In this document: positions 2,490 to 34,437 of the stretch, one piece after another
Layout of the letters: every line of letters begins with the position of its first letter
How positions within the stretch are numbered: position 1 is the stretch's first letter
NCBI GenBank assembly: GCA_963822445.1
Contig: CAWGHO010000002.1
Span: 416,001-480,000 of the forward strand
Source of the DNA: an uncultured Acidobacteriota bacterium
GTDB taxonomy: Bacteria > Acidobacteriota > Thermoanaerobaculia > Gp7-AA8
Direction: 5' to 3'
Length of the DNA: 64,000 nt
The notes under the pieces: generated by a model
Databases searched by the model: none
What the model was told of the DNA's origin: nothing
What the model saw: only the letters and a program-made list of their open reading frames with translations
Program-made: the position numbers and the translations under genes

Positions 2490-4163
2490 TCATCGCCTCC
2501 GTTTCCCCAGGAGCCAGAGCTCAGGCCGCCCATTGAGAACCTTCCCGGCGAAATCCAGCTGGAACGTCTCTCCGCCTGTCGTGGACACGACGATGTCCCT
2601 TTTCGTGTCGTTATCGAAATCGATGACCTCGAGGCGCCGGATTCGGGCCGACCTCGGGACGACCACACCTGCCCACACACGCTCGAGCTTCGAGTCCAGC
2701 AAAGCGACGGTGGCATGAGGGCGATCGGTGCCGAAGGTCGCACCGGGCTTGTCGTCGATACCGGCAACGATGATTTTGCGGGTGTGCCGCGAGGTTGGTC
2801 GGTCGATGACCATGGACTGCAAGTGGCCCACGTGGTCATACGAAAGAAGGCGTTGACCGTCGGCGGCGTAGAGGGAGACGCGGGAGGCCGAGCTTCCATC
2901 ACTCCACAAGGCGACGATCTCGAGGCCCTGGTCCTGACGCGACAGATCCTGAACGAGGAACTGCCGCAAGGTCGTGTCCTGCTGCGCGGACCAGCGCCGC
3001 AGACCTACCCGGTCGAACACGGTGATCGTGTTCGCGCCGACGACGACTTCCTGACTGCCATCCGCATCGAGATCCGCAACCTCCGCGCGTGTCACGAGGC
3101 CATCGACGCTGTGTTGCCAGAGCCGTTTACCGTTCGCCGAGAATGCCGCGACGGTCGAGCCATCGGTCACGGCGCGTGCGACATTGCCGGGCGGAGGCGG
3201 GGGAGGAGGACCATGGCAGATCGATAGCGGCATGTTCTGAGAGTCGCCGTCGATGCTGACCTGGGTAGCGGCGCGAATCGATGGATTGCGATTCGCGAGA
3301 ATCCACCTCCGGACATAGCGTTCCACGTAGGGTTTCAGCGTTCCGATCGTAACGGCGCCGCGCGTCAACGAGGCCTTACAGCTCATCCCGTTGATCACGG
3401 CTTTCGTGAACACCCCATTGCCATCACCTTCGTATGCATATCCGCCTGCCGTGGCAGCCGAGAACACGATCTGTCCATGCACGCGTCCCATCCTGCCGAT
3501 CATCGGCGCCCTGCCGGCGAGTGAGCCGCGCACATCAGGGATGCGGTTGCGACAGGTGTCGACGAGAAACAGCGATCGTTCCGCGTCCGATTTGCCGGCA
3601 ATGTCCAACAGCCGCGGCATCTGCAAGGCCGTTTCCGGATATCGAAAAAGAGAGCTCGAACCGAGAATGTATTGAACCCCGTCCTTCGTGAAGCCGTGTG
3701 TGGCGATCGACACGATGAGAATTCCGCCGGGGCCGGCGACGGCCGACTGTTTTTGCAGCAGGTCCAGAATGTCACTCGGCCCCGCCGGCTCGATTCTCGC
3801 CCCCGCTCGGACGAGCTCGTCGAGACGTCTTTTCGATGCTTCCTTTCTGGGCCGCCCCGACAGGGAGAGCACCACGCGATCCGGCGGCACGAGCAGTACT
3901 CGTGGATCGAGCGAGAACATATAAGCGAGATCCACCGCGTCGTCCGCCGCATATCGGACTTCGAGTGCCGGATCATTCGTGAATTTCGGCACGCCGATGA
4001 ACAGCGCGGCGGATTGAGCCGGATTGAATTTCGCCGGCTCGACCGGCGCCGCCTCGGGCACGAGTCGAACGCCGCGAAACAATCTCATTGCCACAGGCGA
4101 GACTGCCGCGGTCGTGACCAGGAGTGCTCCCAGTGCGACAACGAGCGGCTTCCAAAGCTTCAT
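2490..4163 (-). CDS. Caspase-like (peptidase C14) protein with N-terminal signal/TM and C-terminal FG-GAP-like repeats
   Basis: ALFIGV, AADDAVDL, IVSIATHG (His), LFLVDTCRN (Cys), GNGVFTKAV. A poly-Pro linker precedes ADLDADGSQEVVVG and IDFDNDTKRDIVVS. ATG at 4163 overlaps the hxsC stop (ATGA). Confidence 0.8.
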   Translation of the reverse strand: MKLWKPLVVALGALLVTTAAVSPVAMRLFRGVRLVPEAAPVEPAKFNPAQSAALFIGVPKFTNDPALEVRYAADDAVDLAYMFSLDPRVLLVPPDRVVLSLSGRPRKEASKRRLDELVRAGARIEPAGPSDILDLLQKQSAVAGPGGILIVSIATHGFTKDGVQYILGSSSLFRYPETALQMPRLLDIAGKSDAERSLFLVDTCRNRIPDVRGSLAGRAPMIGRMGRVHGQIVFSAATAGGYAYEGDGNGVFTKAVINGMSCKASLTRGAVTIGTLKPYVERYVRRWILANRNPSIRAATQVSIDGDSQNMPLSICHGPPPPPPPGNVARAVTDGSTVAAFSANGKRLWQHSVDGLVTRAEVADLDADGSQEVVVGANTITVFDRVGLRRWSAQQDTTLRQFLVQDLSRQDQGLEIVALWSDGSSASRVSLYAADGQRLLSYDHVGHLQSMVIDRPTSRHTRKIIVAGIDDKPGATFGTDRPHATVALLDSKLERVWAGVVVPRSARIRRLEVIDFDNDTKRDIVVSTTGGETFQLDFAGKVLNGRPELWLLGKRRR

Positions 4164-32227: not shown

Positions 32228-34437
32228 GGCGAGCTTCTCCTCGGCGGAACGGATTCGAGAGTGACCTTGTCGATCGACCAGGTAGCCGGCGTCCGGAACA
32301 CTTCTTTCGGCGTGCGCGTGCCCAGGAACGTCATCGCCAGCAACTCCTCGAGCGGCTGCTTGTTCGCGGACGCATCAGGGCCGCGCACTCCGGTCCATTC
32401 GAAAGCCGTGAGGCTCGGCAACGGCTCTTCTGTGGAAAGCAGGAAGTAGGTGTCGACTCCGTAGGGCTCGCCAACGACGAACGACCGCGTGCCGATCAGT
32501 GGAACCTCGGCGGGCGGCTGCTCCAACGGCTGTCCCGGAGTGCGGGTGATCGGCAGGAGATTCTCAACTGAGCCGGCCGCGGGACTGGGGAACAGCAAAA
32601 CACCTCGCCCGTCACTGTCGATGGCAAAGACGTAGACGTATCGCGCATACACGGGCCGCGAAGATGGTGGCTGCCGTTCACGCAGAACGAGCTGGTAGCG
32701 GTTACCGCCGACGAGTTTTCCGTCCTCGACAAGCGCTCCCGCGACCGTGCGGAAGGCAAGGCGGTAGTGGGAGCCGGCTGCTCCTGGCGACGTGAGCGCG
32801 TGCCAGCCCTGCACCCTCCGCAACCGCACCAGCCCTTCCCGAAGCGCGAACGCGTCGTTCGTCGTCCACGCCGTGCGCAACGGCAGAGTGCTCCGCGCGC
32901 GATCGCGCGCCGTTACCAGGGGCCGGACCCACGCGTACTCGACGCGATCGCGGGTCAGGCGTCCGGTCAGTATGTAGTCCGCCGATCGCGGCTCGGCGGT
33001 GAGCTCGACGCCGTCGACACTGCCGACGGCGTCGACGATCGCCGGCGGCACCGGCAGTTGCAGGAAGAGTGACGCTTCAGACGAAACACCGGCCAGCGAC
33101 GCGGCGCCGATCTTCACCTGCCGTTCGGCAGTGACCATCTCCCACGCGCCTCTGTTCCAGCGGAGGAGATGCGTGGGTGTTTCCACGGTCGGATCGTCGA
33201 TCCAGCGGATGCCGCGCCGGGCCGCTTCATCGCGAAGTGCGACTGCGGCCGCCAGCTGCTTCTGTTCCGCGCGGGGAACCCACACCCGCAACGGCGGGCC
33301 AGGCGGAGCGGCCCACGTCACCAGTTCCAGCAACGCGCCCGGCTTCAGCGTTGCGTTGCCGCGGGCGACACGCGCTTCGGAACGCGCGACCCCAAGCAGA
33401 GAAGTAACTTCCAAGCGAACGCCGTCCCGGCCCGGAACGCGCAACTCACTGCCGGCTGTCACGCCGTTCGCCCAACCGCCTTGCAATACGTACGTGCCAA
33501 CGCCGCTCGCTTTTTCCACCGCGATGACGGCCCGTTGATTGCGACGATCGGCTCGCACGCCGAACAGAGGCCTCGATTGCGTCAGCACACTCCCGGCGAT
33601 CACCGGTTGTTGCGCGGGCCTTTCCGTGTGCAGCCACGCCCGGGCGCGGAGAAACGTGTCGCTCGCCGGCTCACCGGCATCGGCGTCGCGCATGGCACGG
33701 ACGAGCGCCCAGGTGAACGCGCCGCGGATCTGTCCGCGATCGTCGAGCATCTCGAACGCGAGGTCGAAATCCTCCGCGGCGGAGAGAATCAACGCGCCAC
33801 GCTCCTCCGGGCGAGCGCCTGCCGATGGATCGCGCACGTCGCGCGGATCGGGCTCGATGCCGCGATGACCGATGCCGCCGGCGAGGCCGCGCACTCCCGA
33901 TCCGCTATGACACGCATCGAGAACGATCGTCAGCCGCCCGCCGCGGTCGAGAATGCGACCGAACAACGGACGCAGTTCCTTGTCACGGACGTCCGACGCA
34001 CCGCTGCGCGAGTCCGCCGGCACGAGCGATTCATCGAGAGTATCGGCCTCGCGCGACAGTGAGTTGCGAACCTGCGATCCGTGTCCCGAGAAATAGAAGA
34101 GGACCACATCGCCCTTGCGCGTCTCTCTTGCGAGCCGCTCGATGGAGCGCAGGATCGCGTCGCGTGTGGCCTGCTGGTCCGTCAGCGCGACGATGTTCGT
34201 GGGCTCGAACGCATAAAGCGCCACGAGCATGTCGCGCATGATCGCGATGTCATTGAGCGCGCCGTCGAGATTGGACCATTCGCGTTCGGGGCCGATGTGG
34301 CGGCGCGGGTCCGGCAGGCGCGACGCCGAATAGTCGTTGATGCCGATCAGCAGCGCACGACGCCGAACCGGCTCCGCATTCAGTCGCGCCGCCAGAAAAG
34401 CTCCGAGCGCCGCCAGGATCCATCCCCACTTTCGCAT
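32224..34437 (-). CDS. Caspase-like (peptidase C14) protein with signal peptide and C-terminal DUF4384-like domain
   Basis: RRALLIGINDY, LDGALND, LFYFSGHGS, IVLDACHSG, GAFTWAL; C-terminal YVYVFAIDSDG..LLFP, PYGVD. Confidence 0.9.
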   Translation of the reverse strand: MRKWGWILAALGAFLAARLNAEPVRRRALLIGINDYSASRLPDPRRHIGPEREWSNLDGALNDIAIMRDMLVALYAFEPTNIVALTDQQATRDAILRSIERLARETRKGDVVLFYFSGHGSQVRNSLSREADTLDESLVPADSRSGASDVRDKELRPLFGRILDRGGRLTIVLDACHSGSGVRGLAGGIGHRGIEPDPRDVRDPSAGARPEERGALILSAAEDFDLAFEMLDDRGQIRGAFTWALVRAMRDADAGEPASDTFLRARAWLHTERPAQQPVIAGSVLTQSRPLFGVRADRRNQRAVIAVEKASGVGTYVLQGGWANGVTAGSELRVPGRDGVRLEVTSLLGVARSEARVARGNATLKPGALLELVTWAAPPGPPLRVWVPRAEQKQLAAAVALRDEAARRGIRWIDDPTVETPTHLLRWNRGAWEMVTAERQVKIGAASLAGVSSEASLFLQLPVPPAIVDAVGSVDGVELTAEPRSADYILTGRLTRDRVEYAWVRPLVTARDRARSTLPLRTAWTTNDAFALREGLVRLRRVQGWHALTSPGAAGSHYRLAFRTVAGALVEDGKLVGGNRYQLVLRERQPPSSRPVYARYVYVFAIDSDGRGVLLFPSPAAGSVENLLPITRTPGQPLEQPPAEVPLIGTRSFVVGEPYGVDTYFLLSTEEPLPSLTAFEWTGVRGPDASANKQPLEELLAMTFLGTRTPKEVFRTPATWSIDKVTLESVPPRRSSP

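Follow-up and report, generated by a model that had tools for sequence, protein, structure and literature searches.

A long co-directional gene array in an uncultured acidobacterium raises the question of whether caspase-like and CHAT proteases, a Ser/Thr kinase, Hsp70-type proteins, a tubulin-like GTPase and a His-Xaa-Ser (HXS) radical SAM cassette can belong to one system. The array comprises 21 genes, g01 to g21, on the minus strand of the 64-kb window analysed here (G000:C2:416001-480000), which comes from a 6.0-Mb genome in three contigs whose closest public relatives are metagenome-assembled genomes of the Thermoanaerobaculia (Acidobacteriota). The array is not one evolutionary unit: g01-g15 are conserved together with genes lying further upstream, and the hxs part is a separable cassette. 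The locus is a rare, conserved tubulin-like/Hsp70/caspase envelope system with a known anti-phage cassette inserted in one lineage. We consider it rather probable that it is a composite of three modules, in which an envelope-spanning conflict system, switched by nucleoside triphosphates and equipped with exported clan-CD proteases, stands beside an independent HXS module; the function of the core we infer by analogy.

Sampled genomes are designated G###, with G000 the host of the window, and retrieved loci L###. G301-G305 are five Thermoanaerobaculia relatives that were searched by tblastn with all cluster proteins (G302 and G303 recur in the class sample as G634 and G490), and domain calls are from Pfam, NCBIfam and PADLOC model scans of the cluster proteins. 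In the proposed composite, module A would be made up of g01-g07, CHAT1202, up_379 and an extracytoplasmic function (ECF) sigma/anti-sigma-like pair, and would export clan-CD proteases and a membrane-anchored vWA protein, besides contributing a receptor-type Ser/Thr kinase. In module B (g08-g15) there would be two Hsp70-like ATPases, a membrane-anchored GrpE-like protein, a zinc-ribbon propeller, a second exported membrane protein, with a metal ion-dependent adhesion site (MIDAS) motif, small membrane proteins and the Tubulin_2 GTPase. Module C, g16-hxsADBC, would be a self-contained five-gene HXS variant, inserted with a relocated g21 at the 3′ end of A and B in one clade. The genes are as follows:

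39806..40612, plus strand: dv2, 268-residue single-pass membrane protein with a hydrophobic helix at about residues 130-150
39304..39879, plus strand: dv1, ECF-type sigma factor running divergently from CHAT1202, with an uncertain start
35971..39579, minus strand: CHAT1202, large protein of 1202 residues with a C-terminal CHAT protease domain (8.1e-52)
34910..35974, minus strand: up_379, 354 residues, family unassigned, start overlapping the CHAT1202 stop (ATGA)
32224..34437, minus strand: g01, predicted exported caspase (Peptidase_C14, PF00656, 9.7e-24) with a DUF4384-like C-terminus
29090..32227, minus strand: g02, predicted exported TPR and CHAT protease (CHAT 1e-74, plus TPR families)
28536..29093, minus strand: g03, coiled-coil lipoprotein, weak coiled-coil-type matches only, VVGC lipobox-like N-terminus
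27079..28488, minus strand: g04, predicted exported vWA protein with a C-terminal transmembrane helix (VWA_2 1e-9, VWA 1.7e-8)
25402..27042, minus strand: g05, Hanks-type Ser/Thr kinase (Pkinase 1.6e-47)
24660..25391, minus strand: g06, glycine-zipper membrane protein or lipoprotein (Gly-zipper matches 1.6e-3), conserved
23770..24663, minus strand: g07, 297 residues, C-terminal transmembrane helix, conserved in G301-G305
20936..23770, minus strand: g08, N-terminal zinc ribbon, Ig-like repeats (weak matches) and Hsp70 (HSP70 9.2e-33)
19512..20939, minus strand: g09, second, very divergent Hsp70-like protein, assigned by fold
18562..19515, minus strand: g10, membrane-anchored GrpE-like protein (GrpE 5.5e-6, 26.6 bits against a cut-off of 25.8)
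17290..18552, minus strand: g11, zinc ribbon (Zn_Ribbon_1 2.6e-3) and PQQ/WD40-like beta-propeller
15584..17293, minus strand: g12, predicted exported MIDAS-motif domain, beta-sandwiches, transmembrane helix and C-terminal beta domain
15195..15566, minus strand: g13, small protein with three predicted transmembrane helices, conserved as far as Desulfonema
11232..15182, minus strand: g14, Tubulin_2 (FtsZl1) GTPase, long helical region, zinc ribbons at the C-terminus
10106..11239, minus strand: g15, membrane protein with a CarboxypepD_reg-like beta-sandwich (PF13620 4.2e-6, below cut-off)
8136..9983, minus strand: g16, DnaJ-type Cys-rich zinc-finger motifs, three transmembrane helices and a helical C-terminal domain
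7085..8125, minus strand: hxsA-like (g17), conserved leader, nine HxS triplets, Pro-rich linker and a beta-rich C-terminal domain of about 190 residues
6753..7088, minus strand: hxsD (g18), TIGR03976, 58.7 bits against a cut-off of 50
5311..6756, minus strand: hxsB (g19), radical SAM/SPASM maturase, TIGR03978, 599.7 bits against 370
4160..5314, minus strand: hxsC (g20), radical SAM maturase, TIGR03977, 382.9 bits against 267.9
2490..4163, minus strand: g21, predicted exported divergent caspase-like domain with FG-GAP/beta-propeller

As the earlier note on this DNA had it, 21 open reading frames (ORFs) follow one another on the minus strand between 34437 and 2490 with no break in the series, and each of the 11 overlap junctions that it named reads ATGA, GTGA or TGATG on the minus strand. 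Its statement that every other gap is under about 50 nucleotides (nt) fails at one place: with starts refined by ribosome-binding sites and orthologue alignments, the remaining gaps are 9-47 nt, except that g15 and g16 are separated by 122 nt (GTG at 9983) or 137 nt (ATG at 9968, the start favoured by the orthologue alignment). The refined starts are ATG 25391 for g06 (GAGG upstream), ATG 15566 for g13 (AAGGAG upstream) and TTG 11239 for g15, the last in agreement with orthologue alignments. Promoter and terminator scans neither back nor split an operon, as the sigma-70 promoter scan returned 0 sites in both halves and the terminator-like sites, mostly intragenic, numbered 14 (shuffles 15.3) and 21 (shuffles 14.5, standard deviation 3.3) in the two halves. 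The domain calls of the note are largely borne out by Pfam and NCBIfam for the caspase, CHAT, vWA, kinase, Hsp70, GrpE, Tubulin_2 and hxsB/C/D genes; the DnaJ-like call is not, as g16 has only Cys-rich zinc-finger motifs. That the run both starts and ends with a caspase-like gene is clear for g01, and for g21 it relies on a weak NF047832 match and an aligned, conserved His/Cys dyad. Motif inspection, and for g21 alignment with g01, shows no loss of catalytic motifs in the four proteases, the kinase, Hsp70 or the tubulin. From signal-peptide, lipobox and transmembrane patterns, which represent a crude hydropathy reading of N-termini and not the output of a dedicated predictor, g01-g04, g12 and g21 are predicted to be exported and g08, g09, g11 and g14 to be cytoplasmic. 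The description as an envelope-spanning sensing, assembly or defence machine appears fair for the core, many of whose products are predicted to be exported or membrane-anchored.

Modules A and B are inherited together in Thermoanaerobaculia. All five relatives keep CHAT1202, up_379, g01 and g04-g15 in the G000 order, with protein identities of 30-81%, and g04 and g05 accompany g14 in every one of them; g02 was detected in four (none in G301) and g03 in two (none in G301, G304 or G305). The cluster of G305 is permuted into two blocks, which are still adjacent, and G303, G304 and G305 carry a divergent g21-like gene between up_379 and g01. The divergent genes dv1 and dv2 likewise have tblastn matches beside the cluster in five of five relatives. 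The g09 marker is found in 10 of the 401 genomes of the class sample, in 4 of 24 of the same genus and in 8 of 96 of the same family, and because of this the cluster is regarded as accessory and patchy. Further afield, where the Tubulin_2 alignment led to 80 loci with one genome per species, the order Hsp70, g09, GrpE, propeller, g12, Tubulin_2 recurs in G090, a member of another family, and in L038. With local hidden Markov models, Hsp70, propeller and Tubulin_2 were found in Pyrinomonadaceae and Chloracidobacterium loci, and g12 with Tubulin_2 in one Myxococcota locus. Desulfonema magnum has homologues of g12, g13, Tubulin_2 and g15 (L041, NZ_CP061800.1, 1932780-1957204), interleaved with genes for an SLT lytic transglycosylase, a DUF6431 protein, a trypsin-like peptidase, a LysM protein, a caspase and a SPOR protein; in this filamentous deltaproteobacterium the version of the core has a peptidoglycan flavour. 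The effector varies, with a trypsin-like peptidase following Tubulin_2 in both G090 and Desulfonema.

The hxs part follows a different distribution. In the phylum sample of 301 genomes, HxsB above its cut-off occurs in 8 and Tubulin_2 in 10, and G000 alone has both; none of the seven other hxs loci in that sample has g02-g16 homologues within 8 kb downstream or up to 32 kb upstream. In the class sample HxsB above cut-off occurs in 14 genomes, and five have both HxsB and g09, namely G000, G490, G526, G634 and G358. Core and tail are proven neighbours in G000, G301 and G302, and in G526 and G358 the core contig stops just after g15 with the tail on another contig. Both of the latter assemblies break exactly in the g15-g16 interval. 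This interval measures about 1 kb in G301 (L035 15198-16259), where an ORF that encodes a hydrophobic segment may lie on the opposite strand, and is of similar size in G302, against 122-137 nt in G000. In G303, g16-hxsADBC lies on a separate short contig beside a CHAT gene, and the core contig runs 8 kb beyond g15 without the tail; G304, G305, G362 and G498 have the core and no HxsB in the genome, so that five core-positive genomes lack hxs beside the core. Conversely, G338, G446 and G598, which belong to the same genus and lack the core marker, have a solitary g16-hxsADBC, around which no g21, caspase or CHAT match lies within about 7 kb, and hxsADBC without g16 is found at ten further loci. 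A further arrangement is seen in G070, where CHAT1202, up_379, a g21-like gene and g01 lie beside a convergent hxsADBC in a genome with no Tubulin_2.

In a tree of the C-terminal 920 residues of 12 Tubulin_2 proteins, from which no rows were dropped and in which G090 and Desulfonema form long branches, the five clusters bearing the tail (g16, hxsADBC, g21) make up one clade with 97/95 support. The cluster tree conflicts with genus labels, as G358 groups with genus-g1 clusters. Most simply, the five-gene HXS variant would have been inserted once, in one lineage of clusters, and g21 would have been relocated along with this. The genes do make up a genuine, conserved neighbourhood, syntenic in other genomes, and the proposition of the earlier note that all 21 are one system is not supported, as the core occurs without hxs and hxs without the core. 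Nor, in evolution, does the unit begin at 34437, since CHAT1202, up_379 and the ECF sigma/anti-sigma-like pair upstream are conserved with the cluster. On whether tubulin/Hsp70 clusters ever carry hxs genes the result is divided: most lack them and most hxs loci lack the cluster, and one clade of five clusters has both.

The proteins of module A combine proteases with putative sensors. A signal-peptide-like N-terminus is present in both g01, with SGHG and DACHSG motifs, and g02, with AAHG and LSACQS motifs, and CHAT1202, which is colinear in G301-G305, shows AAHG and LSACSS. In G301, g01 aligns in two pieces that lie in different frames and is probably frameshifted; neither g02 nor g03 was detected in this genome, where the protease part may be decaying. 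The vWA protein g04 has a DCSKS MIDAS motif and an orthologue on the cluster contig in five of five genomes. The kinase g05 has HRDVK, DFG and SPE motifs, matches the PADLOC PD-T4-6 kinase models at 1.3e-80 and has a transmembrane helix near residue 300, followed by a putative extracytoplasmic C-terminal part. For g06 there is a further weak match, to the glycine-zipper part of a YiaD-type model, and g07 has no family match in the Pfam, NCBIfam and PADLOC scans. Similarly, up_379 has no match in Pfam or PDB sequences; its ATG at 35974 is preceded by GAGGAG, and it is kept in G301-G305 and G070. The sigma factor assignment of dv1 is based on Sigma70_r2 (7.3e-8), Sigma70_r4_2 (1.6e-7) and Sigma70_ECF (3.7e-7), whereas dv2 has no Pfam match and is called anti-sigma-like from its position after the ECF sigma gene. 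Genome G000 as a whole has 11 CHAT and 3 Peptidase_C14 matches, about 14 such genes in 6 Mb, and two more CHAT and caspase pairs resembling CHAT1202/g01 are found at G000:C3:1249012-1252331 and G000:C3:221997-226804.

Two further features lie between up_379 and g01:

34525..34860, plus strand: zinc-ribbon and TM2-domain gene (TM2 2.6e-16, Zn_Ribbon_1 1.3e-4)
34449..34472, minus strand: promoter-like motif GAAC-N14-CGTGTC, 36 nt upstream of the g01 ATG

The motif has the identical offset in G000, G301 and G302, with the boxes conserved and the spacer diverged, and it could serve as a binding site for a regulator or as a promoter of the ECF type. In its strict form the pattern is seen at two places in the window, the g01 site and 44399-44422 on the plus strand. 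An extended form, AAAGTCG...GAAC-N14-CGTGTC, is common to the three closest genomes, and inverted 5-mers GACAC/GTGTC are found upstream of g01 (34449-34520 and the orthologous regions) in six of six genomes at variable spacing. The zinc-ribbon/TM2 gene is followed by a GC-rich 10-bp hairpin without a T tract near 34872-34897, and in G303, G304, G305 and G070 its place between up_379 and g01 is taken by a g21-like caspase gene.

In module B, g08 shows the DFGTT, DEPSAA and DHGGGTLD motifs, and its orthologues, those of G090 and L038 included, are 35-80% identical. For g09 there is no sequence-family match, nothing useful came from a sequence-profile search of the PDB, and its profile-profile comparison with g08 was not significant; its AlphaFold2 model (pLDDT 65, pTM 0.63), however, adopts a two-domain Hsp70-like fold, and a Foldseek search of the PDB gave top matches that are nearly all Hsp70-family chaperones (DnaK, BiP, Hsc70, Hsp110; best E 3.7e-13, probability 1.0, TM-score 0.4-0.45); ParM, a related protein, ranks 42nd and 48th. 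The GrpE-like g10 has an N-terminal transmembrane helix followed by RRRR. Among PDB sequences the g11 profile matches the designed propellers Ika8 (6.7e-19) and Cake9 (7e-15). The label ‘vWA-like’ for g12 is a motif-level, unconfirmed call: D26, S28, S30, T124 and D146 are invariant in a DxSxS...T...D pattern and the AlphaFold2 model (pLDDT 80) has an alpha/beta N-domain, but Foldseek returned beta-sandwich matches only, no Pfam vWA match was found in 9 orthologues or 10 distant relatives, and neither a PDB sequence-profile search nor a profile-profile comparison of g12 with g04 gave vWA support. The syntenic gene in L044 (Pyrinomonadaceae) has a weak VWA_2 match (6e-4). The g12 family is rare, with 132 representatives at E<=1e-3 among 1.84 billion. 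The assignment of g14 to Tubulin_2 is firm (PF13809 7.1e-62, 210.1 bits against a cut-off of 27); it carries a GGTGSG motif and a double zinc ribbon (DZR 4.6e-6), and its orthologues share 45-81% identity. The membrane protein g15 has no PDB sequence match and is conserved as far as Desulfonema.

In the tail, HxsB, HxsC and HxsD all score above the NCBIfam equivalog cut-offs. The hxsA-like product has its HxS triplets at residues 84-114, and its NCBIfam matches are two weak, sub-cut-off HxsA-family matches in the repeat region (TIGR03979 7.7e-5, 22.7 bits against 121.65). Its C-terminal domain, conserved among acidobacterial HxsA proteins, includes no detectable peptidoglycan-binding domain and has no Pfam match at E<=0.01 and no PADLOC match at E<=0.001. 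The g16 gene lies directly upstream of hxsA in eight loci (G000, G301, G302, G358, G303, G338, G446, G598) and would represent the fifth gene of the local HXS variant. The earlier note had placed it as a DnaJ-like partner of the Hsp70 set; this role as J-protein is rejected, as g16 co-travels with hxs and, for all its five CxxCxGxG-like motifs, has no HPD motif and no DnaJ or other family match in the Pfam, NCBIfam and PADLOC scans. At L139 (G634:C40:41481-42890), in the G302 genome, a second, divergent HxsB-like gene scores 503 bits in a different radical-SAM context.

The last gene of the array, g21, has an NF047832 match of 2e-9 (37.2 bits against a cut-off of 140) and weak FG-GAP-type matches, and its invariant His156 and Cys204 align with the g01 dyad. 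Its relatives adjoin a second Tubulin_2 paralogue in L016, L081, L101 and L108, and the caspase-tubulin pairing therefore recurs in a different form. This paralogue, of about 900 residues and about 30% identical to g14, is divergent from the g21-like gene and has no Hsp70 with it; beside it are a g01-like gene in L081 and L108 and CHAT1202-like and up_379-like genes in L081, and the same pair also lies downstream of the G301 cluster. A role of g21 as an HXS component is rejected, for it is missing from the standalone g16-hxsADBC loci and its relatives pair with the Tubulin_2 paralogue. A minus-strand ORF of 153 residues at 2032-2493, which has no family match, overlaps the g21 stop by 4 nt (ATGA); it has no tblastn match in the five relatives, of which only G301 and G302 carry g21, and may be spurious or lineage-specific. 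On the other side of the array, the stretches 43961-48682 and 56433-59961 encode envelope-type proteins (a CarboxypepD_reg protein, a DUF2207 membrane protein, an FG-GAP repeat protein and a DUF4407 protein), for which no tblastn match was found in the fetched stretches around the clusters of the relatives.

In the composite reading, an envelope event would be sensed by the periplasmic vWA domains and the kinase ectodomain, and the signal would cross the membrane by way of transmembrane helices and phosphorylation. In the cytoplasm, the tubulin-like protein, assembling in a GTP-dependent manner, and the Hsp70 pair, cycling through ATP with GrpE, might act as a switch and set its threshold. As output, the exported caspase and CHAT proteases would be activated, and the ECF sigma factor might also be set free to drive the g01 promoter. 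HXS would act separately, HxsB, HxsC and HxsD maturing HxsA so that phage DNA entry is blocked in the periplasm, as in E. coli. The conflict-type reading is proposed because the locus resembles the tubulin, HSP70/GrpE and kinase themes described by Kaur et al.

Several observations weigh against this reading. The window contains no tRNA, Rfam family, integrase, or flanking or meaningful repeat that could be found, and its flanks are housekeeping genes (phosphoenolpyruvate (PEP) carboxylase, RtcA, PEP mutase). Suicide-type defence does not usually rely on exported proteases. With PADLOC there was no match at the level of a system; module B drew no match at all, and the models matched in module A were only the generic ones for kinases, caspases and CHAT proteins. 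The SLT, LysM and SPOR genes of Desulfonema fit cell-wall remodelling as well as defence. The full independence of module C is also called into question by the retention of the tail in five species and clusters, by the ATGA overlap of hxsC and g21, by a g15-g16 gap of only 122-137 nt in G000, and by the co-occurrence of g09 and HxsB in five genomes against about 0.35 expected in the class and about 1 within family f1, a count on related genomes that does not amount to a test of independence.

The rival that survives best is serious, if unlikely, and takes A and B as a cytoskeleton-like apparatus for envelope or peptidoglycan remodelling, or for development, in which the proteases process envelope proteins rather than serve defence. 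FtsZl1-vWA-kinase operons have been interpreted in this way (PMC2875224, as far as the available part of that paper goes), most of the products here are predicted to be located in the envelope, ECF sigma/anti-sigma-like pairs are typical of envelope stress control, and the Desulfonema genes, the housekeeping flanks and the absence of any mobility gene found would all suit such an apparatus. It is less easily reconciled with a distribution that is very patchy even within the genus (4/24), protease types that are interchangeable, a cluster tree at odds with genus labels (G358), and co-location with a proven anti-phage cassette. Patchiness, swappable proteases, conflict between tree and genus, and co-location with defence genes are usual in conflict systems and unusual in core morphogenesis.

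Less likely than remodelling, and improbable in itself, is full integration of HXS, whereby g01-g21 would be one machine in which, for instance, the tubulin/Hsp70 switch or g21 controls the maturation or release of HxsA to give a sensor-induced block of DNA entry. The co-directional, tightly spaced genes with their 11 overlaps, the hxsC-g21 overlap among them, and the tail kept in five diverged clusters that form a clade would be expected of such a machine. Moreover, hxs lies beside a clan-CD protease in three arrangements (g21 in five genomes, CHAT in G303, g01 in G070) although G000 has only about 14 such genes in its 6 Mb, and E. coli HxsA requires N-terminal cleavage by a protease that is not named in the available text (PMC13128918). 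However, 13 of the 20 hxs loci with readable flanks have no clan-CD protease, g16-hxsADBC stands alone in three core-marker-negative genomes, four genomes have the core without any hxs, g15 and g16 are parted in G301 by about 1 kb and a possible opposite-strand ORF, and the g21 relatives pair with a Tubulin_2 paralogue without hxs. A chance pile-up of same-strand genes with no functional link even within g01-g15 is very improbable, for although long co-directional runs are frequent in high-GC genomes, CHAT1202-g15 is colinear in five genomes at 30-81% identity with near-identical strains excluded, the linkage survives permutation in G305, and the Hsp70-GrpE-propeller-g12-Tubulin_2 order is found in other families.

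The three-module composite could be taken a step further, with A and B as a trans-envelope pathway for immunity or cell death that is of a new class and does without the P-loop GTPases of the known relatives. In it, vWA and kinase receptors in the periplasm would drive a tubulin-like polymer and a dedicated Hsp70/Hsp70-like/GrpE cycle in the cytoplasm, this switch would license an exported caspase/CHAT cascade and an ECF sigma response, and HXS would have been captured in one clade as a second line of defence; this we regard as speculative and on balance doubtful. If it is true, bacteria would have in this pathway their own equivalent of transmembrane signalling from receptor to caspase. Comparative genomics brought Tubulin_2 (FtsZl1) and its Hsp70 and vWA partners to light in 2010 and 2020, and no bench study of any member of a Tubulin_2 system was found in the literature searched. 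The present cluster is a compact, well-delimited version, with intact enzymatic motifs, a clear predicted inside/outside topology and a dedicated sigma factor, and with natural variants that have or lack HXS, have or lack g02 and g03, and use caspase or trypsin. It makes testable whether a bacterial tubulin homologue is a signalling switch or a cytoskeletal element, what a paired Hsp70/Hsp70-like/GrpE set does outside proteostasis, and which substrates exported bacterial caspases have.

Among known systems, two smaller ones resemble the locus only faintly. The caspase of the two-gene EACC1-caspase system (Kaur et al. 2020), in which a gene for an EACC1 transmembrane protein comes first, corresponds to NF047832, ‘caspase, EACC1-associated type’, which g01 and g21 match weakly at 56.8 and 37.2 bits, far under the cut-off of 140, and no EACC1-like partner match was found among the cluster proteins. 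The BovA CHAT protein of Borvo gives a weak match to g02 (1.3e-7) that covers only part of the CHAT domain. The literature searched held no paper with this gene combination or with a link between Hxs and tubulin or caspases; neighbourhood tables of Kaur et al. and of Makarova and Koonin that the search did not cover may list related acidobacterial loci.

The HXS module is much closer to its counterpart, and hxsA-D can no longer be called a system of unknown function, as it was in the earlier note. In the excerpts available of Li et al. (Nat Commun 2026, PMC13128918), HXS of E. coli blocks phage DNA entry, with HxsB, HxsC and HxsD maturing HxsA before its export and attachment to peptidoglycan, and the gene order D-B-C-A holds in 99.6% of systems, 99.7% of which are in Pseudomonadota. 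The present cassette resembles it in that HxsB/C/D pass the equivalog cut-offs and the hxsA-like product, itself under the cut-off of the HxsA model, bears tandem HxS repeats after a leader. It differs in the order A-D-B-C, the acidobacterial host, nine HxS triplets against five, the beta-rich C-terminal domain in place of a detectable peptidoglycan-binding one, and the membrane protein gene g16 before hxsA in the eight loci named. Sequence comparison would extend HXS to Acidobacteriota, with five genes, another order and a different anchoring domain.

For the core, the earlier suggestion that the combination is undescribed stands for the full set of genes as far as the literature searched goes and falls for its parts, as Tubulin_2 with vWA and kinase genes (PMC2875224) and tubulin with HSP70 and GrpE (PMC7159879) appear in the available portions of both sources. 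Makarova and Koonin (Biol Direct 2010, PMC2875224) described FtsZl1 operons with vWA proteins, kinases, divergent GTPases, DnaJ-type Cys-rich domains and OmpA proteins and proposed a role in membrane remodelling; Tubulin_2 has been equated with this FtsZ-like group (PMC9871819, likewise available in part). The locus shares with them the FtsZl1-type protein, a vWA gene, a kinase, many membrane proteins and a nearby DnaJ-type Cys-rich domain. Neither a divergent P-loop GTPase nor an OmpA-domain protein was found here, both being frequent there and not universal, and Hsp70/GrpE, the beta-propeller and the caspase/CHAT proteases are not mentioned in the accessible text of that paper.

The core also resembles the DO-GTPase/GAP1-N2 conflict systems of Firmicutes and Actinobacteria, which have one or two TRAFAC-clade DO-GTPases (Kaur, Burroughs, Iyer and Aravind, eLife 2020, PMC7159879). 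In the available text their variable parts fall into three non-overlapping themes, tubulin with vWA, HSP70 with GrpE (including a second HSP70-only gene and DnaJ fusions), and kinase with PP2C and vWA. The accessory themes of tubulin and vWA, HSP70 and GrpE, and kinase are all present in our locus. In common are a tubulin-family protein and membrane-bound vWA proteins, HSP70, GrpE and a second HSP70-only gene, a kinase with transmembrane helices, zinc ribbons on cytoplasmic components, and associated caspase or trypsin peptidases. In contrast, none of the 24 proteins here is a P-loop GTPase: no GTPase family was found in the Pfam and NCBIfam scans, and the Walker A pattern [AG]xxxxGK[ST] is absent from 23 of the 24, its sole match being at residue 10 of the CHAT1202 ORF, before the probable start. 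Nor did GAP1 (GAP1-N/M/C domains), for which Pfam should have models, appear among the Pfam matches of the cluster proteins, among which g07, g15 and up_379 have no family assignment. The three themes, separate in that paper as far as available, are joined here at one locus in Acidobacteriota, with exported proteases and an attached ECF sigma/anti-sigma-like pair. The core, lacking the defining GTPase, is outside the DO-GTPase family, and by analogy it probably works in a similar way.

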